The position numbers and the translations under genes are program-made. Shown piece by piece: positions 7,535 through 31,071 of a stretch of 64,000 bases of DNA. Position 1 is the first letter of the stretch, and every line of letters starts with the position of its first letter. Source of the DNA: a phage. The stretch lies in the NCBI GenBank assembly GCA_014686905.1, contig GCA_014686905.1_4093.1; one strand, given 5' to 3'. The notes under the pieces were generated by a model. The model was not told where the DNA came from. It searched no databases and saw only the letters and a program-made list of their open reading frames with translations.

Positions 7535-7567
7535 TGTAGTACTAACTCAACTAATAGGATGTATACC

Positions 7568-7963
7568 ATGATTACTAAATTCTACGCTACCCGTGAAGCT
7601 GCCCGTATTGTTGCACGCGAGGAAGGAGCAGCATTTAAAGACATGGGCAAAGATGCACCGAAAGGTCAACGCTGGGCCGTACAGTTCAAAGAAATCTCTG
7701 ATATCGTGAATTCACCGGAGCCAGTACTAACAGCAGCAGAACTAAAACGAGCGGATTTACTGGCGGCAGTACTTAACGCACAAGATGAATTTATCGCTGA
7801 TTCTGATATCAAAGTACAGACAAACCATACCGCTTGGACTCACGCGGATCACCTGGCAAACCTTAAGCGTCCAAGTGAACTGGTACGCAACCAGAAAGAG
7901 ATCCGACACGACCGTAAGGGTAATCGTGTAACAGTATACAGTAAACGCCGCCAGGTTATCTAA
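7568..7963 (+). CDS. hypothetical protein (131 aa)
   Basis: RBS AGGA then ATG 7568 (alternative start 7559). Confidence 0.6.
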   Translation: MITKFYATREAARIVAREEGAAFKDMGKDAPKGQRWAVQFKEISDIVNSPEPVLTAAELKRADLLAAVLNAQDEFIADSDIKVQTNHTAWTHADHLANLKRPSELVRNQKEIRHDRKGNRVTVYSKRRQVI

Positions 7964-7985
7964 TAACTTGCAGTACTAACAACAC

Positions 7986-8010
7986 GGCGGGATCAGTTCC
8001 CGCCTTTTTT
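7986..8010 (+). terminator. rho-independent terminator
   Basis: hairpin GGCGGGA-TCAG-TTCCCGCC followed by TTTTTT. Confidence 0.75.
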
Positions 8011-8025
8011 ATAGGATAAACTAAA

Positions 8026-8280
8026 ATGATTAAGGTACAACTATCTAAAGATAATATCTTGCGGGTACACTATAAAGCACCACAGAGAATCATCACAAAG
8101 GCCGTACAGCTTGCTAATGAGTTTATTAATGGTAACCTATTACCAAGGAAGTTAAGCAACGGAAAACTGCGTGTAATCGATGTAGACACTAACAACAGAA
8201 TAGTAATAGAGAACACAGGAAAGATAAACCTTTATGAACATCAACAATATAATAAGAAAATAAAACTAATATCACGTTGA
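8026..8280 (+). CDS. hypothetical basic protein (84 aa)
   Basis: RBS AGGA, ATG 8026. Confidence 0.55.
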   Translation: MIKVQLSKDNILRVHYKAPQRIITKAVQLANEFINGNLLPRKLSNGKLRVIDVDTNNRIVIENTGKINLYEHQQYNKKIKLISR

Positions 8281-8333
8281 CAGTACTCAATTGTTTTAGT
8301 ATTATGTACACATACCAACACGGGAGAAACAAA

Positions 8334-8552
8334 ATGAAATTATCTAAAATCGAAAAGAAAACTATTGATGAAGCAGTTAAGCACGGTTATACCTTTCGTA
8401 ATGATTCACATTTTACCAATTTTCAACAAGGCCAAAGGACTATTAAAAAACTAATTGACAAAGGTTTATTAGTTAAAGTAGATAACGGTAACGGCATTGA
8501 GTATCAGCCAACCCAAGACGCATTATCTTTAAAGAAATATGCAATTATCTAA
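8334..8552 (+). CDS. hypothetical protein (72 aa)
   Basis: ATG 8334 after duplicated promoter/RBS block 8277-8333. Confidence 0.5.
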   Translation: MKLSKIEKKTIDEAVKHGYTFRNDSHFTNFQQGQRTIKKLIDKGLLVKVDNGNGIEYQPTQDALSLKKYAII

Positions 8553-8609
8553 TTGACAGTACTCAAATGTTTTAGTACTATATGTACATACCAACACGGG
8601 GGAAACAAA

Positions 8610-8852
8610 ATGATTACTTTAGAAAAACGTATCAAAGAAACTACATCGCTGGTGGAACTGTTAACAGTACTGAAATGTAAAACAACACCATTCAGCACGC
8701 CGGACTTTATTAATATGGTTGATGTTAATGGTCGCTATCGTATCACGGTCGAACAAGGAGCGGCGAAAGTATTCAGTACTAAAAACACTAAGGAAGTGAT
8801 CCACGCCGTTAATGTTAAAAAAGTAGTTGCAATTGATAGTAAAGTACTGTAA
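8610..8852 (+). CDS. hypothetical protein (80 aa)
   Basis: ATG 8610 after duplicated promoter/RBS block 8553-8609. Confidence 0.5.
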   Translation: MITLEKRIKETTSLVELLTVLKCKTTPFSTPDFINMVDVNGRYRITVEQGAAKVFSTKNTKEVIHAVNVKKVVAIDSKVL

Positions 8853-8883
8853 TATAGTTTCATTAACTCAAGGAGAACATGCA

Positions 8884-9468
8884 ATGCGTAATTATACTAA
8901 ATTCATCCGTACCCTGTCAGAAATGGAAACTAACAAAGAGATCCTTTCAGCTTGTCGGTTAGCTGGACTGGAGATCATCGGGGCGGGATCTTCCCGTATA
9001 GTTTTCGCTTTAAATGATCGGTTAGTGATTAAGGTCGCCAATTGTGATGCGGGTGTAGAACAAAATGAAACTGAATGTAAGGTATGGAATTTTTTAGACT
9101 ATGACCGCCCTCAATTGAAACAGTACTTTGCTAAAGTGCATATGCATTTAAGCGATCCTGATAATATGTTTATCGTTATGGATCGGTTGAGTACTGCAAG
9201 CAAAGGCAGTGTAAAGCACGTTAACGCGTGCAACGAATTAAAGTACAATATTAAACGTAATGCAATTGAACGCCAGCACCGCTTTGCTGATGCACTACAA
9301 CACGTTGATGATACACTGTCAACACTAACGATAAGAGATATCAGAAAACAGAATATCGGCCAGGATCGCAACGGCCTTATTAAAGTACTTGATTACGGTT
9401 TAACCCGCAATATCTGGAATCAGTACTATAAAAAGCGGGATGTAAAAGCCGTAACTATAACACGATAA
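8884..9468 (+). CDS. minimal protein-kinase-like protein (194 aa)
   Basis: Gly-rich loop GAGSSRIVF, VIKVA lysine, catalytic-loop-like RDIRKQN, DFG-like LDYG with kinase-like spacing; RBS AGGAGA. Confidence 0.55.
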   Translation: MRNYTKFIRTLSEMETNKEILSACRLAGLEIIGAGSSRIVFALNDRLVIKVANCDAGVEQNETECKVWNFLDYDRPQLKQYFAKVHMHLSDPDNMFIVMDRLSTASKGSVKHVNACNELKYNIKRNAIERQHRFADALQHVDDTLSTLTIRDIRKQNIGQDRNGLIKVLDYGLTRNIWNQYYKKRDVKAVTITR

Positions 9469-9477
9469 AAAAGATTA

Positions 9478-9575
9478 AAAAAGGGATTGACTTCGGTCAG
9501 TCCCTTTGCTATTATATATTCATTGAGAGATAGCTCACTGACCCACAGGGTGCATAAATGTATCTATTATATAAG
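9478..9575 (+). repeat. REP-A intergenic element copy 3
   Basis: hairpin GGGATTGAC-TTCG-GTCAGTCCC 9483-9504 then T-run; conserved box CCCACAGGGTGCATAAATGTATCTATT. Confidence 0.6.
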
Positions 9576-9600
9576 TATTCAGTACTGAAAACTATTTTTA

Positions 9601-9671
9601 AAAAAGTACTTGCATTGTACTTAGAATCAAGTATAATGTTTTATATCGAGAGGGGGAAATGGTTCTCCCTC
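9601..9671 (+). promoter_or_regulatory. sigma70-like early promoter plus 5' leader stem-loop
   Basis: TTGCAT 9610-9615, TATAAT 9632-9637; hairpin 9648-9671. Confidence 0.6.
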
Positions 9672-9691
9672 AAAGAATAAGGAATAAAATC

Positions 9692-9913
9692 ATGACTACA
9701 ATGACTTGCATTTACGCTTCCAATCTTCTGAATGATGCGGCCTTTAATGTTGATTCAGAATATCAATGTTATCGGGATGAAAATAAAAAAGTTTTTGTAG
9801 TTGATAATAATGGTTTCCATATTGAATTACAATCCGGTTTCACTGGTGTTGATGGTAAATCAGTATGGGGCGTACAGGATGATAACGGTACATATCATTT
9901 TAAACGTAATTAA
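9692..9913 (+). CDS. hypothetical protein (73 aa)
   Basis: RBS AAGGAATAAA, ATG 9692 (internal Met of track ORF 9659..9913). Confidence 0.55.
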   Translation: MTTMTCIYASNLLNDAAFNVDSEYQCYRDENKKVFVVDNNGFHIELQSGFTGVDGKSVWGVQDDNGTYHFKRN

Positions 9914-9975
9914 GTATTGACAAAGTATCTTAGTACTGTATAATAGTTTACATCAAGGGGAGAATAGTTCTCCCC
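9911..9975 (+). promoter_or_regulatory. sigma70-like early promoter plus 5' leader stem-loop
   Basis: TTGACA 9917-9922, TG-n-TATAAT 9939-9944; hairpin GGGGAGAA/TTCTCCCC 9957-9975. Confidence 0.65.
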
Positions 9976-9997
9976 GATACTAAAAGGAAACAAAATT

Positions 9998-10270
9998 ATG
10001 TCCAGCTACTCCGCTACTATGATCATTAAAGATATGAACGGTAATCCTACTTCTGCTGGTGGATCATTTGGAAACATTAATTTAGATGGTCGGTTATCCA
10101 TGCAATCAGCCATCGATGCAGCGAAAGAAGTTTTTAAGAATGAATGTACTGTTAGTAAGCTGGATTATATGGGATTCGCTATCGAGAAAACTAATCGTTT
10201 TGTGAACTACAAAAATCCACTGATGATTGATACTAACCTGAAAGCTAACGAAGTGGGGTACTTATTATGA
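9998..10270 (+). CDS. hypothetical protein (90 aa)
   Basis: RBS AAAGGAAAC, ATG 9998. Confidence 0.6.
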   Translation: MSSYSATMIIKDMNGNPTSAGGSFGNINLDGRLSMQSAIDAAKEVFKNECTVSKLDYMGFAIEKTNRFVNYKNPLMIDTNLKANEVGYLL

Positions 10271-10458
10271 CAGTAGAAGAAGTTAAAAAAGTACTGGCAG
10301 TACTACGCTATCATAATCATTGCAAGGTGAAGAATGATCCTGATTATGTTGATTCATCCCTGGAGGAAGACACATTAAACGCAATAAGCCATATGCAAAC
10401 ATTAGCAAAGCGTATGACCGAAAAGAATAGACCGGACTATATCGGAAATAAAATTTAA
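10267..10458 (+). CDS. hypothetical protein (63 aa)
   Basis: ATGA overlap with upstream stop. Confidence 0.5.
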   Translation: MTVEEVKKVLAVLRYHNHCKVKNDPDYVDSSLEEDTLNAISHMQTLAKRMTEKNRPDYIGNKI

Positions 10459-10526
10459 AAAGTACTTGCATTGTAGTTAGATTAACGTATAATGTTTTAC
10501 ATAGAGCGGGGGAATAGTTCTCCCGC
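10456..10526 (+). promoter_or_regulatory. sigma70-like early promoter plus 5' leader stem-loop
   Basis: TTGCAT 10466-10471, TATAAT 10488-10493; hairpin GCGGGGGAA/TTCTCCCGC 10506-10526. Confidence 0.6.
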
Positions 10527-10544
10527 CAGTCCAGGAGATACACC

Positions 10545-10808
10545 ATGAACACTATCGAAATCACTATCAATGCACACGTATACGACAACGTAGTACTGCA
10601 AACTACTATGACCGCTAATGATACCAGTACTTTGCGGAATACTGTTATTAGTGCCGTATGTGCCGCTATCGGTGATGTCGCCCTGGAAAATGCAGAACAC
10701 ATCAACGACGGTTTCACTATGTGCAAACGTGATAACGCAAAACATATCATCGTAGAAGGTTACGGCGGTGTAGAATATAATCTTTATATGAAAAAAGTAC
10801 TTGCATAA
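10545..10808 (+). CDS. hypothetical protein (87 aa)
   Basis: RBS AGGAGA, ATG 10545. Confidence 0.55.
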   Translation: MNTIEITINAHVYDNVVLQTTMTANDTSTLRNTVISAVCAAIGDVALENAEHINDGFTMCKRDNAKHIIVEGYGGVEYNLYMKKVLA

Positions 10809-10857
10809 TAACTAAAACAAAGTATAATGTTTTGCATAGGGGGAGATATCCTCCCCC
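10791..10857 (+). promoter_or_regulatory. sigma70-like early promoter plus 5' leader stem-loop
   Basis: TTGCAT 10801-10806, TATAAT 10823-10828; hairpin GGGGGAG/CTCCCCC 10838-10857. Confidence 0.6.
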
Positions 10858-10875
10858 ACTAAAAGGAGTAATAAA

Positions 10876-11100
10876 ATGGCTAACTTTGATGAACTGATGC
10901 GGGAAGTAGCTAACCTGGCAGAAGAGAAAAAATCATTCGATTCTATCTATAACACCGCTCACCGTGATTCAGTACTGGCATGTACTCAGGATCAAAAAGA
11001 TGAACTAATCGCCACATATCATGAAGCATGGAAGTACTACCGCCAATGGGAGAAAGAAGAAAGCGAGTCTACCATCAACGGCATCAATAATCTAATCTAA
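10876..11100 (+). CDS. hypothetical protein (74 aa)
   Basis: RBS AAAGGAG, ATG 10876. Confidence 0.6.
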   Translation: MANFDELMREVANLAEEKKSFDSIYNTAHRDSVLACTQDQKDELIATYHEAWKYYRQWEKEESESTINGINNLI

Positions 11101-11176
11101 AAGTTTTATTTCAGTACTATTGACATAGCTTGATAGTACTGATGTAATAACTTTACTAACTACAAGGGGAAACATA

Positions 11177-11434
11177 ATGGAACAGTTCACACAATATCGG
11201 GTAAATCCTCAAGCTATGGCCTACGTAGAAGACCATAAAACGTTACCAGTACTAACACCAATTAAAGGCCATATCTATCGTGCAATGTCATGGAATACGG
11301 CCCAGGATGGATATACTACCGCTGGCGTGGGTATGTATTGCGGGAATGGTGAATGGTTTGATCCAAATAATCCGGTAGCCATTGACAGTACTGAAAAAAT
11401 GAAATGGGCCGACTACATCGAAGATATTTCATAA
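11177..11434 (+). CDS. hypothetical protein (85 aa)
   Basis: promoter TTGACA...TGTAAT upstream; RBS AGGGGAAA. Confidence 0.6.
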   Translation: MEQFTQYRVNPQAMAYVEDHKTLPVLTPIKGHIYRAMSWNTAQDGYTTAGVGMYCGNGEWFDPNNPVAIDSTEKMKWADYIEDIS

Positions 11435-11501
11435 AACTATTTGACAGTACTAACCAGTAATGTATAATGTTTTACATAGAGCGGGGGAATAGTTCTCCCG
11501 C
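11435..11501 (+). promoter_or_regulatory. sigma70-like early promoter plus 5' leader stem-loop
   Basis: TTGACA 11441-11446, TG-n-TATAAT 11463-11468; hairpin 11480-11501. Confidence 0.6.
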
Positions 11502-11523
11502 CAATAGTTTGGAGTAAAACATT

Positions 11524-11724
11524 ATGTCTATCGCTATCGCCCTGGTTGAAGTACTGAAAGAAGCTAAAGCCAACCTTATCGATGTACAGATTAAGGAATT
11601 GCAAAATGGTTTAATCGGCTGTACTTGTACCGCTGGTGGAGCGGCAGACTATCGGGAATTCGAATCACTTGAATCGATGGTCCGTTATCTTACCATGATC
11701 GTAGAAGATTGGAGAATCATCTAA
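11524..11724 (+). CDS. hypothetical protein (66 aa)
   Basis: RBS GGAG, ATG 11524. Confidence 0.55.
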   Translation: MSIAIALVEVLKEAKANLIDVQIKELQNGLIGCTCTAGGAADYREFESLESMVRYLTMIVEDWRII

Positions 11725-11737
11725 CAAAAAAGAATAA

Positions 11738-11830
11738 AAAAAGGGATTGACTCCGGTCAGTCCCTTTGCTATTATATACGCATAGACAAAAACTAGCCCA
11801 CTGGGTGCAGGAGTGTATCTAAAATATATA
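11738..11830 (+). repeat. REP-A intergenic element copy 4
   Basis: hairpin GGGATTGAC-TCCG-GTCAGTCCC 11743-11764 then T-run; diverged box GCCCACTGGGTGCAGGAGTGTATCTA. Confidence 0.55.
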
Positions 11831-11969
11831 GTTAATAACGGTGAGTAACTATCTGCTGGTGGGGTGAAAACTATTAATAAAAAAGTATTGACAAAGTATA
11901 TCAGTACTGCAATAATGTATCTCGTAGGGCGGCAATGGTGCGACGGCCCACAAAGTTAGGAGATTCAAA

Positions 11970-12302
11970 ATGAGTACTTCAATCGCTATCGTTAAAGCTT
12001 TCATCCGTACCAATGTTTCATCTGTATTCATCGACGGTCTGGATCGGGAAGTAGAATACTCAATCATTATCGCACAGACTGCAAACGGTGCTCGGTATAT
12101 CCTTAATGATAGTGAAGCAAATCACTACTACTTCACTAAAGCCACTGGCTTTAAACGCATCGATGCTGATGTAGTATACGCTAAGATGAATAAGCTGGTA
12201 GACAAGATTAACGCGAAAGGTACTATCGATTTACAGTACTGGAACGAAACCTATCCAGAATATGGATCTCACCGTTACCTGAATCCAGGTATTAAAATGT
12301 AA
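11970..12302 (+). CDS. hypothetical protein (110 aa)
   Basis: promoter TTGACA...GCAATAAT upstream; RBS AGGAGA. Confidence 0.6.
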   Translation: MSTSIAIVKAFIRTNVSSVFIDGLDREVEYSIIIAQTANGARYILNDSEANHYYFTKATGFKRIDADVVYAKMNKLVDKINAKGTIDLQYWNETYPEYGSHRYLNPGIKM

Positions 12303-12370
12303 AAAGTACTTGCATAGTACTTAGAATCAAGTATAATGTTTTACATAGAGAGGGGGAAATGGTTCTCCCT
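12301..12370 (+). promoter_or_regulatory. sigma70-like early promoter plus 5' leader stem-loop
   Basis: TTGCAT 12309-12314, TATAAT 12331-12336; hairpin 12347-12370. Confidence 0.6.
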
Positions 12371-12391
12371 CCTAAATTAAGGAGTTTTATC

Positions 12392-12793
12392 ATGACCTTC
12401 TCAATCAATTCCTTCGCTGACGTTTTAGTACTGGCTCGGACTTTTGGTAAAGATGCACTGGAGTACGCTGTAAGTAATGGTACTATCCAACCGGAACAGT
12501 GCCGCATCATTGGAAACTGCAAACGTTGGGCGGTATCCAATACTATTGCACTGGAAAACTTCCACGATGGCAACAATGAATATTCTGTTGATGTAGTATT
12601 CGAAGCCGTTGATCTCGGCGGTATCTATAATACTAACCTGAATGATGTGCGTATCGTTCGCACGGGGTTCGGTGCTTATGATGTATCTATCCGTGAAGCT
12701 ATGGACACCGGATACATTAGCAAGGACTTACTTGCTCACATCATGCAGCTGTGTACGGAACGTAACGAAGCACGCACTATCTTAGGACTGTAA
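12392..12793 (+). CDS. hypothetical protein (133 aa)
   Basis: RBS AAGGAG, ATG 12392 (internal Met of track ORF 12359..12793). Confidence 0.6.
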   Translation: MTFSINSFADVLVLARTFGKDALEYAVSNGTIQPEQCRIIGNCKRWAVSNTIALENFHDGNNEYSVDVVFEAVDLGGIYNTNLNDVRIVRTGFGAYDVSIREAMDTGYISKDLLAHIMQLCTERNEARTILGL

Positions 12794-13921: not shown

Positions 13922-14133
13922 TTATTATAGAAAACTCATATCAATATACTGAACGCATCGCTGCCAGACAACTTGAAATCCTCATAATATACGAAGAGAC
14001 TTCTGATTTAAACTTAGCCGAGGTATTGGAAAATGAAATACTTTTGGGTGCATTCTTGGGAACAGACTATCAGGAGTATTATGAGGAAAAGTATTTGTCA
14101 TCTCTTGAGAAATACATCAGGAGTAAATTATGA
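13918..14133 (+). CDS. LGTNYQ-family mini-protein
   Basis: motif FLGTDYQEYY. Confidence 0.6.
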   Translation: MIIIENSYQYTERIAARQLEILIIYEETSDLNLAEVLENEILLGAFLGTDYQEYYEEKYLSSLEKYIRSKL

Positions 14134-14342
14134 TTATATTAACACCTGAAGAATATAAGAAACGTTTTAATTCTGTCCAGACTGAAATATTACTTATATA
14201 CCTTTCAAATGCAGACCTTAACTTATCAAGGGCAATGGAGAAGGATTTACTTATGGGTGCATTTTTGGATACAGACTTTCAGGTGTATTATGTAGGGGAA
14301 TACTTAATTGCACTCCAGAATTACATTAGGAGTAAACTATGA
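14130..14342 (+). CDS. LGTNYQ-family mini-protein
   Basis: motif FLDTDFQVYY. Confidence 0.6.
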   Translation: MIILTPEEYKKRFNSVQTEILLIYLSNADLNLSRAMEKDLLMGAFLDTDFQVYYVGEYLIALQNYIRSKL

Positions 14343-14566
14343 AACATTTAAGTAATATTGAGAAGATGAGAATTATCATTGATGCATTAAACAAATACGA
14401 TACCCTTTTACAAATAAAAGGTTTAACTCGATTGGAACACAAGATAAACACCACCGATGTACGCATGTTGGCTGTACTGGGGACGAACTTTCAGGAAGAG
14501 TATGTTGTTGCACACATAGTTGCACTCACTAATTACATAATGGACAAATGTAATGAACATCATTAA
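14339..14566 (+). CDS. LGTNYQ-family mini-protein
   Basis: motif VLGTNFQEEY. Confidence 0.6.
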   Translation: MKHLSNIEKMRIIIDALNKYDTLLQIKGLTRLEHKINTTDVRMLAVLGTNFQEEYVVAHIVALTNYIMDKCNEHH

Positions 14567-14777
14567 TAACTTTGAATACGAGGCCCGTGCTAAGAGTGCC
14601 AGAAAAAAAGAGAACACCATTTACTTCACTATGATGTACTTACAATGGACTGAAATTGAAGAAAAGGTTGCTGAAGTTTGGATGTTGGAATTCATGGGGA
14701 CGCAGTATCAGAATAGGTTTGCGGGTGAGTATATCAATGTTCTTATGAAACAAATAGAAAGAAAGGAAAAGAACTAA
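14553..14777 (+). CDS. LGTNYQ-family mini-protein
   Basis: motif FMGTQYQNRF. Confidence 0.6.
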   Translation: MNIINNFEYEARAKSARKKENTIYFTMMYLQWTEIEEKVAEVWMLEFMGTQYQNRFAGEYINVLMKQIERKEKN

Positions 14778-14935
14778 TGGTTTTCATTAACATATCTGAC
14801 CAACTCGATACTAAACTAGAAGTCGAGCAGAGTGAGGGATGGATGCTGTACTTTCTTGGAACTTCTCATCAGAATTTTTATATCCATGAACACATAGTTG
14901 CACTCAAGAATTACATTATGGACAAATGCAAATGA
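14777..14935 (+). CDS. LGTNYQ-family mini-protein (short, 52 aa)
   Basis: motif FLGTSHQNFY; ATG shares A with upstream TAA; below track cut-off. Confidence 0.5.
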   Translation: MVFINISDQLDTKLEVEQSEGWMLYFLGTSHQNFYIHEHIVALKNYIMDKCK

Positions 14936-15189
14936 AATACTTAACACAAGATGAATATTCACTTAGAATTCGAAAGCTCACCCCAGAAGCAAGAGTAATC
15001 TACGATGACCCCACCCTTACATGGAACCAAATGCGAGCTAAAGTTAATGAGCTATGGTTGCTGTACTTTATGGGGACTCAATATCAAGATAAGTTTTGCA
15101 AAGAATTTGTCGATCAATTAATGAATGTTATACAGGATAAACTAGATGAATATTGGCTCGCAAAACATGAAGACTTTATCAGGAGTTGA
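14926..15189 (+). CDS. LGTNYQ-family mini-protein
   Basis: motif FMGTQYQDKF. Confidence 0.6.
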   Translation: MQMKYLTQDEYSLRIRKLTPEARVIYDDPTLTWNQMRAKVNELWLLYFMGTQYQDKFCKEFVDQLMNVIQDKLDEYWLAKHEDFIRS

Positions 15190-15418
15190 GTATCAAACTG
15201 CCCTCTTCTCTCTTATTAACACCCTTAGAAAAAACAATGCATTACATGGTGCACCTGAAGTGGATGTTATCAACGGTGATGTTTATCTTATGAAATTCAT
15301 TGGAACAAACTATCAAGATCTGTTCATTCAACGATACTTGGCATCATTAAGAAACCAAATCCAATATAAAACCCAGAGAGCCAAAAAAGAATGGAATAAA
15401 CAATGCGACAAAGACTAA
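15167..15418 (+). CDS. LGTNYQ-family mini-protein
   Basis: motif FIGTNYQDLF; start uncertain (15146 or 15167). Confidence 0.5.
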   Translation: MKTLSGVEYQTALFSLINTLRKNNALHGAPEVDVINGDVYLMKFIGTNYQDLFIQRYLASLRNQIQYKTQRAKKEWNKQCDKD

Positions 15419-15651
15419 ATCACAAAATGTATTGTAAACTATTGCAGACACTGGCACAGAAACACTATGACACGGTATCTGAAATATTACCCTATGATAT
15501 CATGCGTTTACTTCACTGTGAGGCCGAGATGCTTGTACTGATGACAGGCACTGATAAAACAGCAATCGCCAGATCGATAGAGCAATATATTGATGCACAC
15601 TGCCAACACATGAGAACCGAAATCTGGAGGAAAGAGAATGATAATTCTTAA
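15403..15651 (+). CDS. LGTNYQ-family mini-protein (degenerate motif)
   Basis: motif LMTGTDKTAI; same size and array position. Confidence 0.5.
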   Translation: MRQRLNHKMYCKLLQTLAQKHYDTVSEILPYDIMRLLHCEAEMLVLMTGTDKTAIARSIEQYIDAHCQHMRTEIWRKENDNS

Positions 15652-15853
15652 TGAGTATCAGTATCATTGGAGGTTACAAACTATCAAATCAAAAGTGTAT
15701 AGTATTGTGTTAAACAAATCTATTGCACAAGAGGACAAATGTGTTATAATAGCTGAAATGAAGTTGGGTGTATTCGTAGGGACAAACTATCAAAACATCT
15801 ACACTGACGTATTATTAAGTTCCTTACGTAACAAGGTGGTATCCAAAATATGA
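15638..15853 (+). CDS. LGTNYQ-family mini-protein
   Basis: motif FVGTNYQNIY. Confidence 0.6.
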   Translation: MIILNEYQYHWRLQTIKSKVYSIVLNKSIAQEDKCVIIAEMKLGVFVGTNYQNIYTDVLLSSLRNKVVSKI

Positions 15854-16068
15854 GAAATTTACAAGGCTTTGAATACATCAGACTCCTGAAAACATGTGGA
15901 AGCAGAAGGAGAATGATATCAAGCGATAAGAGCATCCAAGCTAACCTTAAGCACGCACTAGTAACTGAACTCTATGTAGGTGCACTCTTAGGCACAAACT
16001 ATCAACAAATGTATGTAGATCTATGGATTGACGCTCTACAGAAAGAGGTTAAAAGTAAATGCAAATGA
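15850..16068 (+). CDS. LGTNYQ-family mini-protein
   Basis: motif LLGTNYQQMY. Confidence 0.6.
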   Translation: MRNLQGFEYIRLLKTCGSRRRMISSDKSIQANLKHALVTELYVGALLGTNYQQMYVDLWIDALQKEVKSKCK

Positions 16069-16277
16069 TTAATTTAAGTAAAGACGAATTTTATGTTATA
16101 CTGGCGAAAACTTATCCAGCACGTAAGGCCGTTTATGATAGTCACATTATTGAACCCTCAAAGAAGTTGATTTTAGTAAATGAGATAAAGATGCTTTCAG
16201 TCTTAGGAACAAACTATCAAGAGAATGCTGTACTGATGTTAATTGATGCCCTCCAGCGAGAGGTTAAACGTAAATGA
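16059..16277 (+). CDS. LGTNYQ-family mini-protein
   Basis: motif VLGTNYQENA. Confidence 0.6.
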   Translation: MQMINLSKDEFYVILAKTYPARKAVYDSHIIEPSKKLILVNEIKMLSVLGTNYQENAVLMLIDALQREVKRK

Positions 16278-16504
16278 AAATGATTCATTTAACTTACCAT
16301 GAATATCAAAAACGTTTAAATGCATCCAGAGATATAAGGATTCAAATATTCAATAACAAAAGATTGAAGCCTGATATCAGAAAAATCAAAATTATAGAAG
16401 CAGAGTTATGCAACTTTCTAGGGACCAACTATCAGGCAGGTAAGGTAAAAAACTATCTTAGAGAACTAATGAATAGTATTGAAAATAAATGTAAGGGTAA
16501 TTAA
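16274..16504 (+). CDS. LGTNYQ-family mini-protein
   Basis: motif FLGTNYQAGK. Confidence 0.6.
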   Translation: MKMIHLTYHEYQKRLNASRDIRIQIFNNKRLKPDIRKIKIIEAELCNFLGTNYQAGKVKNYLRELMNSIENKCKGN

Positions 16505-16505
16505 C

Positions 16506-16745
16506 ATGAAAATGATTAAATTATCTCAAGCAAAATATAAAGAACGCCTGGTGAAAATTGCACCTGGACTTAATGAAATCCATCACGGAGAAGTCATTAA
16601 ACACGGAAATAAGATGATTAAGAAACTTGAGTTAAAGGTGGGTGCATTCATAGGAACAAACTATCAGGAGTATTATGTAGATGAATACATAATCGCACTT
16701 AAGAGATACATTGGAAGAAAACTATATCTACAAACTAAAGAATAG
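16506..16745 (+). CDS. LGTNYQ-family mini-protein
   Basis: motif FIGTNYQEYY; ATG 16506 chosen over upstream track start. Confidence 0.55.
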   Translation: MKMIKLSQAKYKERLVKIAPGLNEIHHGEVIKHGNKMIKKLELKVGAFIGTNYQEYYVDEYIIALKRYIGRKLYLQTKE

Positions 16746-16774
16746 TATTGAAAATAAATGTGAGGTTGATGAAC

Positions 16775-17038
16775 ATGCAAATGATCAATTTAAGTAAAGA
16801 TGAATATACCGAGCGTATGACAAAAATTACGCACAAACGTAATACAATCTATCACAACCCAGAAATTCAACACAGTAAGAAAATGATTATGATGCGTGAG
16901 TTAAAGATGGGTGTATTCTTAGGAACAAACTATCAAGATACAGAAGTAAATCGCTTAATCGCGGAGTTACTACTGGAAATCAGAGGTAAGCTGTACTTTC
17001 ATCAAATGACCCAACCACTGAGGTGTACTAAGAAATGA
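16775..17038 (+). CDS. LGTNYQ-family mini-protein
   Basis: motif FLGTNYQDTE; 5' region near-duplicate of 16479-16510. Confidence 0.55.
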   Translation: MQMINLSKDEYTERMTKITHKRNTIYHNPEIQHSKKMIMMRELKMGVFLGTNYQDTEVNRLIAELLLEIRGKLYFHQMTQPLRCTKK

Positions 17039-17250
17039 TCAACATCACATTGCAAGAAAGATTCATCCGAATCAACTATGCAATTACCAAATTAGATGCT
17101 ACTATAGGATTCCAAAGTCTACCATACAAAACCAGATTGTTATTAGAGTGTGAAGCTAAGTTGGGTGTACTGTTAGGGACGCAACACCAACAACGATATG
17201 TGGAAATCTGGATTGACCTTTTAACCCAAAATATATATGAGAGAATGTAA
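17035..17250 (+). CDS. LGTNYQ-family mini-protein
   Basis: motif LLGTQHQQRY. Confidence 0.6.
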   Translation: MINITLQERFIRINYAITKLDATIGFQSLPYKTRLLLECEAKLGVLLGTQHQQRYVEIWIDLLTQNIYERM

Positions 17251-17481
17251 ATGCAAAATGAAATGATATACTTAACGAATGAAGAATTTCAAGAGAAGAT
17301 GTTAAAAACCAAAAACATTACTCTTAAGTTCGTTCCAAATCAATCAATATCTGAAGTATCTGCAAATGTATTGTTTCAGAAGCTACCATACGTTCTTGGA
17401 ACTGATAAACAAGAATTTATGGTTCAAAATATGATTGAACATCTTATAATGAGTATTAAGGAAAAAGTTAATGCAAAATGA
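17251..17481 (+). CDS. LGTNYQ-family mini-protein
   Basis: motif VLGTDKQEFM; first 26 nt identical to next copy. Confidence 0.6.
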   Translation: MQNEMIYLTNEEFQEKMLKTKNITLKFVPNQSISEVSANVLFQKLPYVLGTDKQEFMVQNMIEHLIMSIKEKVNAK

Positions 17482-17725
17482 AATGATATACTTAACCTAT
17501 AATGAATACGTCGAGAGATTAGTTCGTGCCAAGAGATATACCAATAAACGTCCAATTGACCTAAACCAAACCCCAGCAGAAAGGAGTGCAGAAGTATTAT
17601 TCCAATCACTACCATATCTTCTGGGAACTGATAGACAAGAGGAATATGTTGCACGTATGATTAGATATCTTAAAATCACTATTAAGGAAAAAGTAAATGC
17701 AAATGAAATACTTAACAGACGATGA
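17471..17725 (+). CDS. LGTNYQ-family mini-protein
   Basis: motif LLGTDRQEEY; recent duplicate of 17251..17481 with read-through tail. Confidence 0.6.
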   Translation: MQNEMIYLTYNEYVERLVRAKRYTNKRPIDLNQTPAERSAEVLFQSLPYLLGTDRQEEYVARMIRYLKITIKEKVNANEILNRR

Positions 17726-17948
17726 GTTAAAAGAACGACTAATTAAATCAAGAAAACATACAAATCAACTTCCAAACGACACAAACAAGTCTCCAGCGGA
17801 AAGGAGTGCAGAAGTTTTATACATTCAACTCATGTACTTTCTTGGCACTGACAGACAAGAGTATTACATTGAAAGTATGCTTCGATATCTTAAATTCTCT
17901 ATAAAGGAAAAGATACATGATCAAGTATTTAAAAATCCTAACAGTTAA
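17697..17948 (+). CDS. LGTNYQ-family mini-protein
   Basis: motif FLGTDRQEYY. Confidence 0.6.
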   Translation: MQMKYLTDDELKERLIKSRKHTNQLPNDTNKSPAERSAEVLYIQLMYFLGTDRQEYYIESMLRYLKFSIKEKIHDQVFKNPNS

Positions 17949-18159
17949 TGAATATCATAAGATTGTAATGAAAACTAATAGTGATTACGCTAAAAAATCA
18001 AACCCAAAGTACATACTGGAACACACATTTGAAGAACGTCAATTAGCTTTAGTTGAAGCAAAACTTCTTGCACTATTAGGAACAAACTATCAGGAAGAAT
18101 ACAATAGAAAACTAATATACCTTTTAACTAAACATATAAGAAAAAGAAAAAATGCATGA
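17917..18159 (+). CDS. LGTNYQ-family mini-protein
   Basis: motif LLGTNYQEEY. Confidence 0.6.
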   Translation: MIKYLKILTVNEYHKIVMKTNSDYAKKSNPKYILEHTFEERQLALVEAKLLALLGTNYQEEYNRKLIYLLTKHIRKRKNA

Positions 18160-18386
18160 AACACTTGACAGATGATGAACATGGGCTTATAGTAATGGAT
18201 GTAATCAACATCGAATACAAAAAGTTGATACGCTATCGTTGTTATGAAGATAAGCAACTCGTTCTAGCAGAACAGAAGTTGTTTCGACTCTTAAACACAA
18301 ACTACCAAGCACAATACGAAGAATCGTATATGTACCTTTTGGCGAGGAAAGCAAAAAGAGATTATGAAAATTTTAAGCAAAGGTGA
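18156..18386 (+). CDS. LGTNYQ-family mini-protein
   Basis: motif LLNTNYQAQY. Confidence 0.6.
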   Translation: MKHLTDDEHGLIVMDVINIEYKKLIRYRCYEDKQLVLAEQKLFRLLNTNYQAQYEESYMYLLARKAKRDYENFKQR

Positions 18387-18585
18387 TTCAGTAATATTAC
18401 TTATAGAGAGTTCAAGTAAATTCTTAAACATAACACTGTCTGATATAGATGAAGATGACAAAGAAGTACTGAGAGCAGATTTAAGAGTACTGTTACATAT
18501 CGGAACAAACCTACAAGAAGAATATGTAGAGTGCTACATCAATGAACTTAAAGAATCAGTACTGAGAAAATGCAAATGCAAATGA
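18364..18585 (+). CDS. LGTNYQ-family mini-protein
   Basis: motif HIGTNLQEEY. Confidence 0.6.
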   Translation: MKILSKGDSVILLIESSSKFLNITLSDIDEDDKEVLRADLRVLLHIGTNLQEEYVECYINELKESVLRKCKCK

Positions 18586-18803
18586 AAATCATTACCGATG
18601 TAGAATACCTAACAATCATAAATGGACTGTTTTTGAAGCTCTTCGTCATTAACACATCAGATATACCAGATATGGATAAAATTATTAAGAGAAATGAAGT
18701 CTATGTTCTAGCTACCCTTGGAACGAACTATCAAGAACACGACATTAAAGATTATATTAATACACTTAAACGAGCTATTGAACTAAAATGCCAAAACCAC
18801 TAG
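18582..18803 (+). CDS. LGTNYQ-family mini-protein
   Basis: motif TLGTNYQEHD; ATGA-coupled start 18582 (track start 18570). Confidence 0.55.
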   Translation: MKIITDVEYLTIINGLFLKLFVINTSDIPDMDKIIKRNEVYVLATLGTNYQEHDIKDYINTLKRAIELKCQNH

Positions 18804-19003
18804 GAACAGCAGAATACATTGAACTCATGGGATTACACTTCTCATCCTTTCAGAAACTTATGCGAGAATCAAAGAATGATTTAGAATATACCATCAGAGG
18901 TTCCGATTTAAGAATGCTTCTCACCCTAGACACAGATTCCCAAGAGCGATTTGTCAATGAGCATATTAGAGCACTTTTAATGGAAATTAAAAGTAAACTA
19001 TGA
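18788..19003 (+). CDS. LGTNYQ-family mini-protein
   Basis: motif TLDTDSQERF. Confidence 0.55.
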   Translation: MPKPLGTAEYIELMGLHFSSFQKLMRESKNDLEYTIRGSDLRMLLTLDTDSQERFVNEHIRALLMEIKSKL

Positions 19004-19215
19004 AGATAATATCAAACCAAGAGTACTTGGCACTATTCAGGAAGAATAATCACAAATATATGGCACTTGATTCAAGAACTGATATAAGTGAACTTGAAAA
19101 AAATCTTTTGCGTTCAGATATGATAGTACTGACACTCTTAGGAACACAGCATCAAGAGAGAACTGTTAATTCACACATAGGTATTCTTATACAGATTGTA
19201 CAGGAAAAGATATGA
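19000..19215 (+). CDS. LGTNYQ-family mini-protein
   Basis: motif LLGTQHQERT. Confidence 0.6.
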   Translation: MKIISNQEYLALFRKNNHKYMALDSRTDISELEKNLLRSDMIVLTLLGTQHQERTVNSHIGILIQIVQEKI

Positions 19216-27154: not shown

Positions 27155-27706
27155 ATGAGTTCAATGAGTTTATTAGATACATTAGAAAAAGACAGAAGTG
27201 CAATTAAGCGTTTAAAAGAGCAAGTACAAAAGATTGTATACAACGTTGATAAGTTTGAAGTCCCAGGAAGATTTGGTGATATTTCCCATACGGAGATCAA
27301 ATCCCTTAAGTCAGATTTGTTGATTAAAAATAAAAATGGGTTGATTTTAGTTTTGAGTTCAGATATGATGGGGGCAACACATAGTTATAATGCAGTATCG
27401 GTGCGTTCAGAGTGTGAAGGTATATATCTATCACAGGGTTTCAATAGCGAGACACAGGTTTGTTTTTGTGATGCAGTACATGACCCTATGAAGTTCACGA
27501 GAAGTGAAGCCCAAGCGTTATTAGAGCTATCAGACGAGAGTTTGTTTCAGTACAGTACAATGTATGACAATGATAAGCTTCGTTGTATGTACGCTGTAAA
27601 GCATTATACACAGGAGTTTTCTGGATTTGCATACCTTTTAGTTAGAACCAATACCAGATATATTGATATGTTAGAAGATTACATCGATAAAGTTGTTAAT
27701 GTATGA
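27155..27706 (+). CDS. FQxS-family protein
   Basis: motif DESLFQYSTMYD; RBS AAGGAAAG, ATG 27155. Confidence 0.55.
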   Translation: MSSMSLLDTLEKDRSAIKRLKEQVQKIVYNVDKFEVPGRFGDISHTEIKSLKSDLLIKNKNGLILVLSSDMMGATHSYNAVSVRSECEGIYLSQGFNSETQVCFCDAVHDPMKFTRSEAQALLELSDESLFQYSTMYDNDKLRCMYAVKHYTQEFSGFAYLLVRTNTRYIDMLEDYIDKVVNV

Positions 27707-27728
27707 TGTATTATTATGTGATGGGATA

Positions 27729-27896
27729 ATGCTGATGAAAGAGTTATTTGAAGATCAGTTCAATACATATGTGGATAATATTCTTTATTCCAGCCGTGCT
27801 AGTCAACGAGGAAATCGTGCTTACAATATAGATTACCTATTAGTGGTGCTGAGTTCACAGTACACCTACGCTGTACAGAGGACATATTATGAATAA
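27729..27896 (+). CDS. hypothetical small protein
   Basis: track ORF 27693..27896; start uncertain. Confidence 0.3.
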   Translation: MLMKELFEDQFNTYVDNILYSSRASQRGNRAYNIDYLLVVLSSQYTYAVQRTYYE

Positions 27897-28092
27897 TTTT
27901 AGAGATGTTGCTAAGGAGAAGTTCAAGTGCAGTTTAGATTTTGGGTTAAATGATTTTCTGACATGCACAATGTACAGGAATGATGATTATGAGCAATCCG
28001 TAATTTCGTTGCACAGATATTTCGAAATAATTTACGCAAGATATCTTAGAAGGTTAGAGGGAATAGGGGATTGGAATTATGATTACGTTTGA
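27889..28092 (+). CDS. hypothetical small protein (67 aa)
   Basis: track ORF. Confidence 0.4.
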   Translation: MNNFRDVAKEKFKCSLDFGLNDFLTCTMYRNDDYEQSVISLHRYFEIIYARYLRRLEGIGDWNYDYV

Positions 28093-28303
28093 AGAGCCGG
28101 AAGTGGCATATTGCTTTAGTGTGAAAGGTTTTGAATTCATGATGGATTCTATTTTGAAGGATACATATTTGGTTCAGATTGCAGTTGCAGATAATACAGA
28201 TAATGCATTACAGCGAGTATTGAATATATACGAGAGGACGAGTCGAAGGCTTTGTGCAATGAAAAGGATTGAAGAAATCAAGGTTTCTAGGCTGAATAAA
28301 TAG
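28079..28303 (+). CDS. hypothetical small protein (74 aa)
   Basis: track ORF. Confidence 0.4.
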   Translation: MITFEEPEVAYCFSVKGFEFMMDSILKDTYLVQIAVADNTDNALQRVLNIYERTSRRLCAMKRIEEIKVSRLNK

Positions 28304-28500
28304 AGACGTTTCATTTTGACAGGCCGCAGGGGGGGTCAAAAAAATTTCCGCTGAAAAACATGCTAAGGTATATGTTTAATATAAAGTTTTATATTGTGTT
28401 TTTCAGAGTACAGTTCATGTTTCCTGAAACAAAAAATACCCCGCCGCCGAACGTTCTCCTTATATTGGGGTTTACCTTATTAATTATAGTAGAGATTAAG

Positions 28501-28878
28501 ATGGAAATAAAATATAATGAATTTTGTGCAAGGACATGGATGTACACTGGTGAGTTAGTTACGCACTCTAACTTATACAAGGGTGATTTAAACTACGCTA
28601 GGGACAAGATTTTAAAGTACTGGAATGCTGACTTTTATTTGATGGATTTTAGTACTGGGTTTAGGGGTAAAGCAACCGAGATGTTGGACTATACAGTACT
28701 TGATGATGCTGCACTGTTTCAGGCGGCATTAGTATTTGATAAGAAGTACATCTGTACATTAGAAGAGATGATTGAATTACAGCGTAGAATTAAATGTATT
28801 CACAGGGAATGTATAGATATCTGGTGCAGTACTGGTGAAGATGATTTTTGTAATCATTTCAATCTAGGGGAAGTGTGA
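28501..28878 (+). CDS. FQxS-family protein
   Basis: motif DAALFQAALVFDKKY; C-terminus near-identical in pattern to 29407..29763 and 29760..30119. Confidence 0.55.
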   Translation: MEIKYNEFCARTWMYTGELVTHSNLYKGDLNYARDKILKYWNADFYLMDFSTGFRGKATEMLDYTVLDDAALFQAALVFDKKYICTLEEMIELQRRIKCIHRECIDIWCSTGEDDFCNHFNLGEV

Positions 28879-29039
28879 TGGAATTTGATTTTTTAATATC
28901 AGTACATTCTTTTAAGCACAGTTATCAGTACTTTTGTAATTTAAACAAAGGTGATTTGATTATGGATACAGATACAGAGGCTGTATACAGTTCTAATATT
29001 CTGTACAAATTCAGTACTAATCTGAAGGAGATTTTATGA
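28878..29039 (+). pseudogene. truncated FQxS-family fragment
   Basis: first ~28 codons near-identical to 29407..29763, then diverges and stops before the FQ motif. Confidence 0.45.
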
Positions 29040-29407
29040 AAAAAGAAATTAGAATTCAATTCGGTATGAGGAAAAAAGAGGTCATCTGTACACTGAATCA
29101 TGCGGTCGTGGAAAGCCTTGGTGGTGCATTACAAAAATTCTCCCATTTTGTTCTTGTACTATATGAAAATGGGTCTTTTAAAATCTTCACATATGATGAT
29201 TCAAAAAATTACCGTAATGATTTTGTAAATCTGACAGTACTGTCAGAAGAGGAATTCTTTCAGGAAAGTACTGTCTGGAATTTACCAGGAGCACCAATTG
29301 AATACGTCCGTGCTACACAGGCAGAAATGATCAAAGTAATGCAGAACTATCCAGAAGATTATATGACTAAGTTTCCTGAATCTATTTATGTAGAGGTTGA
29401 GTACTGA
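29036..29407 (+). CDS. FQxS-family protein
   Basis: motif EEEFFQESTVWN. Confidence 0.6.
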   Translation: MKKEIRIQFGMRKKEVICTLNHAVVESLGGALQKFSHFVLVLYENGSFKIFTYDDSKNYRNDFVNLTVLSEEEFFQESTVWNLPGAPIEYVRATQAEMIKVMQNYPEDYMTKFPESIYVEVEY

Positions 29408-29763
29408 TGGAATTTGATTTTTTAATATCAGTACATACTTTCAAGCACAGTTATCAGTACTTTTGTAATTTAAACAAAGGTGATTTAATGCACAGTGCAA
29501 ATGAGTATATTCATTACACTCAGGGTAAATTTACATTCATTGATTACAGTTCATTACAGTATCCACACCAAGATATGCCGGACTATACATTAATGGATAC
29601 CGCAGAACTATTCCAAGAATCATTAGTATTTGATAAGAAGTACTTGTGTACATTTGAAGAAGTTATTGCAATACAAAATGAAATGAAAGAGTATGCTGCT
29701 TTGCATAAACCCAATGCAAGTATTAATCAAGAATACAAATTCAATTTAGGAATTCAAGAATGA
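29407..29763 (+). CDS. FQxS-family protein
   Basis: motif TAELFQESLVFD. Confidence 0.6.
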   Translation: MEFDFLISVHTFKHSYQYFCNLNKGDLMHSANEYIHYTQGKFTFIDYSSLQYPHQDMPDYTLMDTAELFQESLVFDKKYLCTFEEVIAIQNEMKEYAALHKPNASINQEYKFNLGIQE

Positions 29764-30119
29764 CATATGATTATTCTATGTACTATTATAAGTTACCTAA
29801 AGGATGGGACTTGTGCTGTAATCTTATTAAGGGCGACTCGGAACATGAGTTGAGTTTATATATGCATTACAAAGATTCTTGTTTTAAATTTATTCATGTA
29901 TCACATGACGACTATGACTATGAATCTGAGAGTCTTATAGATTATACAGTACTGGACGATGGTGAACTATTTCAGGCTGCATTAGTGTTTGATAAGAATA
30001 AGTACTCCTGTACATTTGAAGAAATGGTTTCTTTGCAAAATGAAATGAAGAGATTTGAAAAAGAAAACGTATTTAATCCATCCCCATCAAGAACGAATAA
30101 TTATTATTTCAATATATGA
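29760..30119 (+). CDS. FQxS-family protein
   Basis: motif DGELFQAALVFD. Confidence 0.6.
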   Translation: MTYDYSMYYYKLPKGWDLCCNLIKGDSEHELSLYMHYKDSCFKFIHVSHDDYDYESESLIDYTVLDDGELFQAALVFDKNKYSCTFEEMVSLQNEMKRFEKENVFNPSPSRTNNYYFNI

Positions 30120-30128
30120 GATTATAAA

Positions 30129-30599
30129 ATGACATTACAGAGTTCATTGGAAAAAGCAAAGAAGATTCATGAGTACATGAATATGGCAAAAGAAGGTTCA
30201 GTTTACGGTGTTTTCAAAGACACAAGTACTCAATATTATGTACCGGATAACCTCCTTTATAATGACTGCTCAGATACAGAAACGTGCATACTAGATACCG
30301 ACCCTAATGATTATGAATGCTTCATTAATATGCATAATGAGTACATGGTCTATATTAATGATACAGATACCATCAACAGTACTGACAGCGATTCCAATGA
30401 CATTATAATTCCGAGTGAAGTACTGGAAGGTCCGTGGGATAGTGAAGAGTATTACTTCCAACAAAGTACTGTATATGATAATGAAGTACTTGATGTTATT
30501 ATAATTATGTGGTACTTTAAAAGTATTGGTTCTGGGAACTTCTATTTCGATTACAAATACGTAAAGAAAACTGTAGATAACGGTATTAACAGGGGTTGA
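30129..30599 (+). CDS. FQxS-family protein (subfamily with GPWDSEEYYFQ)
   Basis: motif LEGPWDSEEYYFQQSTVYD. Confidence 0.6.
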   Translation: MTLQSSLEKAKKIHEYMNMAKEGSVYGVFKDTSTQYYVPDNLLYNDCSDTETCILDTDPNDYECFINMHNEYMVYINDTDTINSTDSDSNDIIIPSEVLEGPWDSEEYYFQQSTVYDNEVLDVIIIMWYFKSIGSGNFYFDYKYVKKTVDNGINRG

Positions 30600-30600
30600 A

Positions 30601-31071
30601 ATGAGTTTAGAAAGAGCATTAGAGATTGCGAAGTTAATTGATTTATGCAGCAAAGAAATTGTAGCAAATTGTCTTAATGGATATCTATTCAAGGAAGGTA
30701 AATCATATTGTCGAATGAGATACGATGACAGTAGTGAGTACATTCACATGTATGAAGAAAACTTAGATTCTTCTGAAACAACACTCAATGGGTGTGATGT
30801 TAATTTGGAAGATAATTACATGTACTTCTGTCGTGATGCTGATATTTTAATACAAGATTCTGACATTATATCTGGTGCAGCAGAGAAACATCTTCCGTAT
30901 TCAGTACTGGATAATGACTGGGGAAGTGAAGAGTACTACTTCCAGCAGAATACTATCTACGAGGAAGATGTACTTGACAAGCTTGTCATTCTGTGGTACT
31001 TTAATAATACAGATTGTCCTAGCTTCTATTTGGACTTGGATCTACTACGAGTTATTAAAGAGGATATATGA
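30601..31071 (+). CDS. FQxS-family protein (GPWDSEEYYFQ subfamily)
   Basis: motif DNDWGSEEYYFQQNTIYE. Confidence 0.6.
   Translation: MSLERALEIAKLIDLCSKEIVANCLNGYLFKEGKSYCRMRYDDSSEYIHMYEENLDSSETTLNGCDVNLEDNYMYFCRDADILIQDSDIISGAAEKHLPYSVLDNDWGSEEYYFQQNTIYEEDVLDKLVILWYFNNTDCPSFYLDLDLLRVIKEDI

Follow-up and report, generated by a model that had tools for sequence, protein, structure and literature searches.

A chimeric open reading frame and a variable 529-bp unit in an array of small genes of an Asteriusvirus jumbo phage

A run of small overlapping genes in a jumbo coliphage

We analyzed a 64,000-nucleotide stretch of phage DNA (contig GCA_014686905.1_4093.1 of GenBank assembly GCA_014686905.1; here called the window) and examined an array of small genes in it, above all a 53-amino-acid open reading frame (ORF) that we call X and the repeat that X shares with a neighboring gene. 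The window comes from an Asteriusvirus (121Q/PBECO4-like) jumbo coliphage. Positions 28300 to 30200 are 99.6% identical to phage BF17, and all 37 matching records are 121Q/PBECO4-type phages of Escherichia coli or Salmonella with genomes of 310 to 386 kb. Presence/absence was counted over 35 distinct phages, and 24 related genomes and contigs were used for comparison of the array itself.

We named the genes A (28501 to 28878), X (28878 to 29039), B (29036 to 29407), C (29407 to 29763), D (29760 to 30119), and E (30129 to 30599). All six are on the + strand, neighbors overlap at TGATG or ATGA, and all encode acidic proteins, with pI values of 4.1 to 5.1. The array is a long run of translationally coupled small acidic genes carrying an FQ motif. 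Gene A (125 amino acids [aa]; pI 4.9) follows a 197-nt intergenic region and overlaps X at its stop codon (TGATG); its orthologs in 13 relatives are 80 to 100% identical. A, C (118 aa), and D (119 aa) match phrog_15629 at 1.9e-58, 2.9e-56, and 8.4e-60, respectively, and each spans nearly the whole profile of 121 positions, which makes them full-length members; D is absent from TH47 and vB_Ec-M-J. B (123 aa), also of the FQ-motif family, is a full-length match to phrog_13866 at 2e-41 (residues 2 to 118 on profile positions 1 to 112 of 115), and E matches phrog_9317. X aligns to phrog_15629 over residues 1 to 39 only (profile positions 1 to 39; 1.2e-9), so it is not a complete member, and it lacks the FQ motif.

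None of these three PHROGs families carries a functional annotation. A Pfam scan of eight array proteins, X and B included, gave no significant match, and a profile search of 1.84 billion representatives returned 23 relatives of similar size without annotation. Structural relatives are confined to jumbo-phage proteins, and the clearest outside Asteriusvirus is in Klebsiella phage RaK2. The GenBank label "amidohydrolase 3" on the phAPEC6 ortholog of A (gp447c; 3201 to 3578 of the phAPEC6 piece) was rejected, as it has no Pfam or PHROGs support. A literature search found no account of this array or its turnover, and the specific family and recombination events appear undescribed in the searchable literature.

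The FQ-motif superfamily extends along the window. At least 28 + strand ORFs of 104 to 224 aa between 19667 and 48334 (~29 kb) share the motif (E/D)x(Y/F/L)FQxS(L/T)(V/I)(Y/H/W/F), and PHROGs splits them into 15629, 13866, 9317, 32253, 28680, and others. The intergenic region 5' of A (28304 to 28500) is 88 to 98% conserved even where A is only 80 to 90% identical, and is 94.7% identical in phage A4. Within it lie TTGACAGGCCGCAGGGGGGGTCAA, in which a TTGAC/GTCAA hairpin overlaps a -35-like hexamer, and CCCCGCCGCC...GGGG, and the region may hold regulatory signals of the array.

X and C share an 85-nt direct repeat

We found that positions 28876 to 28960 and 29405 to 29489 (both + strand) form a direct repeat in which 82 of 85 nt are identical. 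The repeat period is 529 bp (28876 to 29405). Copy 1 consists of the TGATG stop/start overlap and a C-type 5' end, the C-derived part of which ends at about 28957; copy 2 is the true 5' end of C. Counted from the ATG, the copies agree at 80 of 83 nt and at 26 of 28 codons, with mismatches at 28906, 28911, and 28956. The similarity between X and C collapses right after the KGDL codons, and none is left beyond 28960. The preliminary description of this DNA had thus been right that the fragment at 28878 to 29039 shares its first ~28 codons nearly exactly with 29407 to 29763, then diverges, and stops before the FQ motif: X ends at codon 53.

No other direct repeat in the coding array reaches 40 nt with at least 90% identity. 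A search allowing up to 3 mismatches found just these two sites, with zero expected by shuffling. Chance similarity, shared codon usage, or an assembly artifact could be invoked for such a pattern, and the AT-rich composition of the window (33.7% G+C) is all that speaks for any of them. None of 100 shuffles matched; nine genomes that were sequenced independently show the same structure on direct verification, and the coverage of two others implies it. These results also tell against convergent codon usage, which the preliminary description had put forward as the case against its own reading. We give these explanations practically no weight.

X joins the start of C to the end of a second gene

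A second homolog accounts for the rest of X. In phage A4, B sits ~6 kb further along, directly 3' of a 192-aa gene, A4_364, which we call Y. The last ~47 codons of Y correspond to the X tail of the 121Q type. An independent metagenomic contig (SRR23924980) has the Y-B arrangement too; Y is there a 198-aa ORF in a cluster of 15 sequences. In the window, the X tail (28961 to 29039, + strand) is homologous to the last codons of Y (A4_364/P0031), with 82 to 96% nucleotide identity to the Y 3' end, and its stop overlaps the B start (ATGA). Searches for Y by tblastn and word index found A4-like copies only, and a scan of IMG/VR for B found only 121Q itself and one distant locus.

The boundaries of this homology are sharp. 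BLAST homology between Y-B and X-B starts at 28953 (nt 76 of X) and ends at 29413 to 29414, both for A4 and for the Logan contig L019. Between the window and A4, identity is 82% over 56 nt and then 94.8% over 420 nt (X tail plus B), and 121Q matches L019 at 94.4% across a contiguous 522 nt beginning at nt 76 of X. A three-way comparison of C, X, and A4_364 placed the first junction at 28953 to 28960 (+ strand; GATTTGAT), a GATTT microhomology at which C-derived sequence meets Y-derived sequence. X is C-like through GATTT (28953 to 28957) and Y-like after that point. X is therefore a chimera: its first ~26 codons come from the start of C and the remainder from the 3' end of a Y-type gene. The second junction is TGATGGA (29405 to 29411), which is common to the boundary between B and the next gene in A4 and to the boundary between A and C.

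X has also been shortened. Its 121Q ortholog is 74 aa long, and the window form differs from it by an in-frame deletion of 63 nt (21 codons). In 121Q and A4, these 63 nt are flanked by two imperfect 15-nt direct repeats, TAAT[G/A]TTCTGT[G/A]CAA, and comparison with both forms places the scar at 28994 to 29008 (+ strand; TAATATTCTGTACAA). The segment deleted from the window X encodes ..VLCKEFQNSKMLELLCIADC.., and it is this deletion, relative to the 121Q/A4 form, that leaves X without an FQ-like stretch.

The preliminary description had taken X for a truncated copy of C. On that account, X would have arisen by tandem duplication of C, diverged past codon 28, and been cut short by a stop, and similarities among A, C, and D would stem from recent shuffling of modules within the genome. 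The near identity of the first 83 nt of X and C fits this, as does the match of X to phrog_15629 over residues 1 to 39. The tail tells against it: its homolog is the 3' end of Y, not C, no C-derived sequence follows 28960, and the FQ-like stretch was lost through an in-frame deletion with no premature stop. The shared cores, which bear on the second half of this account, are taken up below.

The AlphaFold model of C (predicted local distance difference test score [pLDDT], 84; predicted template modeling score [pTM], 0.82) consists of five main strands plus two helices and a short C-terminal strand, with the FQ motif in the first helix (residues 65 to 74). Residues 1 to 27 make just the first beta-hairpin of this fold. 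As modeled, X cannot form the family fold and would hence be no functional family member. X is instead a recombination scar, a chimera of two genes rather than a truncated paralog, and the 85-nt repeat appears to be a by-product of joining the Y tail and B into the C start at two microhomologies. The open frame of X may serve only to carry ribosomes to B and so preserve translational coupling; that two in-frame events coincide has a chance of ~1 in 9.

The cores of A, C, and D are conserved but not recently shuffled

A, C, and D share a core of ~33 codons (..DYTVLDDAALFQAALVFDKKYICTLEEMIELQ.. in A), located on the + strand at 28678 to 28794 in A, with counterparts at 29572 to 29688 in C and 29940 to 30049 in D. 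The cores are 73 to 80% identical in nucleotide sequence, and 21 to 26 of 33 residues are identical. The preliminary description had reported that the C terminus of A matches those of C and D. The resemblance is real and lies centrally, in the core; the last 24 to 27 codons are only 42 to 51% identical, which is the background level. A, C, and D also align in their N-terminal parts, for example, at an NL.KGD motif. We conclude that these three genes are, to judge from their alignments, full-length diverged paralogs without visible mosaicism.

At identical core residues, the same codon was used in 15 to 16 cases versus 10.5 to 12 expected (P = 0.016 to 0.07). This excess looks like a faint trace of common descent, unlike the 96% identity of the repeat. 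In 10 genomes, core identities between orthologs (83 to 100%) always exceeded those between paralogs (74 to 83%), the opposite of what homogenization (concerted evolution) would give. The shared cores therefore appear to be a conserved family motif and not recently shuffled modules, and the earlier claim that core likeness reveals module shuffling at this site does not hold. Together with the Y-derived tail, these results make tandem duplication of C with recent shuffling improbable: the codon reuse slightly above expectation is in its favor, whereas core identity is just 73 to 80%, orthologs beat paralogs in all 10 genomes, and the true C-terminal tails of A, C, and D are unrelated.

The core can serve as a crossover site even so. 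Protein P0007, from a 28-kb Logan contig, follows A up to the core and C beyond it and is a clean A/C hybrid. Its halves are essentially identical to A and C of fEgEco12, and at the crossover they share just 8 nt (TGTACATT), a sequence found at 28753, 29647, and 30009 in the cores of A, C, and D. An overlap of 8 nt is, in our judgment, too short for k-mer assembly collapse. As a separate observation, A/E and A/S toggling occurs after FQ in all three paralogs, which hints at microconversion.

A 529-bp unit is present or absent as a block

The X tail, B, and one repeat copy together make up a unit of 529 bp, with B as its cargo. The X tail and B occur in 12 of the 35 distinct phages and always in single copy, at this site in 11 and at another locus in A4. 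The unit lies between A and C in the window, BF17, phAPEC6, G17, SHEFM2K, CRJP21, EC22.5-2, slurp01, 121Q, and Turkey3, and coverage implies it in ECO103 4-12-1 and Sharanji. A is followed directly by a single C in E9.1, PBECO4, JP4, ELP-22, SP27, UB, and CMSTMSU, as well as in fEgEco12, TH47, vB_Ec-M-J, ph0011, UE-S1, and one Logan contig. Genomes without the unit (E9.1, PBECO4, JP4, and others) keep one repeat copy, and the length of the indel equals the repeat period.

A discrete unit that is present or absent as a whole, with flanking direct repeats, could have been inserted by a dedicated mobile element, such as a transposon, a homing endonuclease, or a PeSL-type cassette, and repeats of promoter plus hairpin resembling PeSL do occur elsewhere in the window. 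We nevertheless consider this very improbable. The unit encodes X and B only, both without a Pfam match, and B shares the FQ family with its neighbors. The flanking repeat is a direct one of 80 to 85 nt formed by the 5' end of a gene, and a target duplication of 80 to 85 bp is atypical for transposition. A scan of 27600 to 30700 found no terminator-like hairpin at 28876 or 29405, and promoter-like sites in that interval were at the shuffle level (19 found versus 16.5 expected).

Turkey3 records how the unit can spread. From 28961 to 29453 it matches the window without a single mismatch, compared with identities of 85.5% in A, 92.2% in C, and 82.1% in D, genes in which it resembles fEgEco12. 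Scored against fEgEco12 and the window, informative sites put the left edge of the tract between 28924 and 28961 and its right edge between 29453 and 29487. The two breakpoints therefore map to the same 32-nt part of the repeat, CAGTACTTTTGTAATTTAAACAAAGGTGATTT, which is invariant in most compared genomes and occupies 28926 to 28957 in copy 1 (+ strand; left breakpoint) and 29455 to 29486 in copy 2 (right breakpoint). The unit thus appears to have entered the Turkey3 lineage by homologous recombination inside this invariant stretch.

Loss is recorded less directly. At repeat positions 31 and 36, the single C carries copy-1 variants in PBECO4 and E9.1 and copy-2 variants in JP4, ELP-22, SP27, and UB. 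The unit was probably lost by repeat-by-repeat recombination. Gene-by-gene identity between the window and its relatives jumps between 68% and 100% at gene boundaries, which is the usual signature of frequent recombination among co-infecting phages.

Presence and absence of the unit, the Turkey3 tract, the hybrid gene, and the sequence patch described below bear out the earlier proposal of ongoing recombination. Two of the checks suggested with it, breakpoint mapping and comparison with related phages, were carried out and yielded GATTT, TGATGGA, and the Turkey3 edges. Its broader picture of turnover by duplication, recombination, and decay stands in part: recombination, indels, and decay are found among the 24 genomes and contigs, and the fragment as a duplicate of C is not.

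A 25-nt patch and other allelic variation

CRJP21 and the window differ at 13 positions in 28908 to 28932 (+ strand; codons 11 to 19 of repeat copy 1) and at none in the flanking 28741 to 28907 (167 nt) and 28933 to 30173 (1,241 nt). The patch is C-like in the window and X specific in 121Q and CRJP21, where this version occurs in X only. It has the appearance of a short recombination or conversion tract.

Codons 11 to 19 of X and C (28908 to 28932 and 29437 to 29461) are hypervariable between nearly invariant flanks. At least 5 deep allelic types (TCTTTTAAGCACAGTTATCAG, ACTTTCAAGCACAG.., ACATTCAAGAATACACATCAG, ACATTCAAGAACATTAATCAG, and ACGGTCAAGGGTGCACCTCAG) occur among the 24 genomes, and these codons span the first beta-hairpin turn in the C model.

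Other differences lie nearby. In UE-S1, A and C form one 729-nt ORF (3139 to 3867 of the UE-S1 piece), with the A stop out of frame at the TGATG junction. TH47, whose record is marked UNVERIFIED, has a 1-nt deletion (GGGG to GGG) at that junction, at about 3640 to 3660 of the TH47 piece. The fusion and the frameshift could be real or could be sequencing errors. A4 has a single phrog_15629 gene at this site, versus four here. The group of Turkey3, fEgEco12, ph0011, TH47, and vB_Ec-M-J has genes of 345 nt and 186 nt in place of E; the 345-nt gene starts with ATGGAATATGATTTTTC.. and contains ..AACAAAGGTGATTA.., and it is therefore another phrog_15629-like paralog. Upstream of the array, a 74-aa gene (28079 to 28303) is 100% identical in phAPEC6, E9.1, and G17 and 75 to 78% identical in BF17, 121Q, and UE-S1, while the segments flanking it are 93 to 100% identical in those genomes, a sharply bounded allelic replacement at gene boundaries.

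A proposed history of the unit

The explanation that we favor, and consider likely, is that the Y tail and B were joined into the start of C and were later exchanged through the repeat arms. The starting arrangement at the site would have been A-C-D, into which the last ~47 codons of Y and the complete downstream B would have been joined at the start of C. We infer this direction and, as the most likely mechanism, template switching or illegitimate recombination at microhomologies of 5 to 8 nt, involving genomes that were co-infecting or replicating. Junction 1 would lie at GATTT(G)AT, immediately downstream of the C codons for KGD, and junction 2 at TGATGGA, which comprises the stop/start overlap and the first codons at both the B/next-gene and the A/C boundaries. 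The product would be A-X-B-C-D, in which X consists of C codons ~1 to 26 plus the Y tail and the first ~80 nt of C occur twice, 529 bp apart. X would have kept an open frame from the C start signals to the ATGA overlap with B and would later have lost 63 nt in frame between the two imperfect 15-nt repeats. The repeat copies could then act as homology arms, with gain, loss, and patching of the unit through homologous recombination over 30 to 85 nt, and the conserved family core would offer a further crossover site that yields hybrid genes. Rak2-like jumbo phages encode the T4-type recombination proteins UvsX, UvsW, gp46/47, and endonuclease VII, according to the report on the related phage CBB (PMC5259590).

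Several points weigh against this history. The direction of the founding event, with Y-B as the donor, is argued on parsimony alone, and tblastn and word-index searches found no homolog of the N-terminal part of Y outside A4-like genomes. The Y tail and B are 82 to 95% identical in nucleotide sequence between A4 and the window, whereas neighboring A4 genes have only 28 to 42% amino acid identity, and A4 may have received this segment recently too. A4 also has no C-type gene bearing the MEFDF start; the chimera would therefore have formed between different genomes or in an unsampled ancestor. The pattern at repeat positions 31 and 36 fits deletions with different crossovers and two old C alleles equally well, and the Logan contigs in the comparison are short-read assemblies.

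The opposite order of events accommodates some of these points. A-X-B-C-D, or a form with a full gene in place of X, could be ancestral, the A-C-D arrangements would be deletions between repeats, and A4-like phages would have gained the X tail and B, making Y the chimera. The shared segment in A4, being far closer to the window than the A4 flanks are, would then be recent in A4. The single copy of PBECO4 follows copy 1 to position 80 and then copy 2, as an exact deletion product would, and that of JP4, ELP-22, SP27, and UB is copy 2. The X-specific center of the 121Q and CRJP21 alleles suggests that X has some age. Against this order, only chance would have placed the edge of the A4 homology at the junction inside X between its C part and its tail, and the most divergent lineages (ph0011, UE-S1, TH47, the ERR11558579 contig, and A4 at this site) are without the unit. 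The duplicated C start makes the 5' part of X secondary whatever the order of events. We regard this alternative as unlikely and retain the joining of the Y tail and B into C as the preferred history.

Relation to known modes of phage mosaicism

The phenomenon is classic phage mosaicism, unusually well resolved, and reveals no new mechanism or function. In the Hendrix/Hatfull model, phage mosaicism arises through illegitimate recombination and then spreads by homologous exchange. The array shares with it a junction at a microhomology of a few bases, a chimeric ORF, homologous spread and loss, and sharp transitions in identity. Nothing essential differs, and this example is resolved well enough to show the two junctions, the donor arrangement, and several subsequent events.

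T4-type phages reportedly have hyperplastic regions, PeSL cassettes, and modular shuffling in a plastic periphery, as described by Arbiol et al. in 2010. Like these regions, the array consists of small early or accessory ORFs of unknown function, differs in content between close relatives, exchanges DNA at short conserved sequences at gene boundaries, and comes with T4-like recombination machinery (here by way of the CBB report). Unlike PeSL cassettes, the recombining sequences here are coding (the ~26 first codons with the TGATGGA overlap, and the family core) and not promoter plus hairpin; the cassette junctions in the window lack such elements, which occur only at 100 to 12,400.

Tandem multigene families change by unequal crossing-over and gene conversion, as in the "genomic accordions" of poxviruses. 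Out-of-register recombination between paralogs is seen here as well, in the A/C hybrid, in copy number (one in A4, four here), and in the short patch. The differences are that the array contains no identical tandem run and no sign of recent amplification and that its paralogs, 74 to 83% identical in their best-conserved part, are not homogenized.

A broader idea, which we hold to be doubtful, is that the FQ-motif genes of Asteriusvirus/Rak2-like phages form a cassette system built into coding sequence. Two linkers, the stop/start overlap with the first ~26 codons and the conserved core, would keep recombination in register, so that accessory genes could be inserted, removed, or hybridized and yet stay coupled, and an arms race with host factors would have diversified the 25-nt tract, as a specificity loop, through the exchange of patches.

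Small genes of unknown function number in the hundreds in jumbo phages, and how arrays of them are assembled is poorly documented. Here, 1.3 kb record a founding junction, an in-frame microdeletion, a conversion patch, spread and probable loss, and the formation of a hybrid gene. The site offers a worked example and a PCR-scorable marker for recombination in Asteriusvirus co-infections. Annotators should be warned that the 53-aa ORF is a recombination scar and not a family member.

Other repeated elements in the window

Three further repeat families lie upstream of the array. A ~90-nt element occurs in ~16 copies between 100 and 12400 (for example, at 111 to 197, 2066 to 2152, 6785 to 6872, 9601 to 9696, and 12301 to 12396). 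It combines a near-consensus promoter (TTGCA/TTGACA ... GTATAATGTTTTACAT), a G+C-rich hairpin (GGGGAGAAATGATTCTCCCC), a ribosome-binding site, and an ATG and is PeSL-like. A second noncoding element is present in 3 to 6 copies, at 6199 to 6293, 9467 to 9561, and 11727 to 11821 (also at 2589 and 4254), and consists of GGGATTGACTCCGGTCAGTCCCTTTGCTATTATATAC, a hairpin overlapping promoter-like hexamers, followed by CCCACAGGGTGCATAAATGTATCTA. Finally, 14040 to 19160 holds a family of very small genes repeated in tandem every ~215 to 270 nt, with conserved ..GGAACAAACTATCAAGA.. and ..AAATGCAAATGA.. segments (repeat families D10, D12, D15, D19, and D20).

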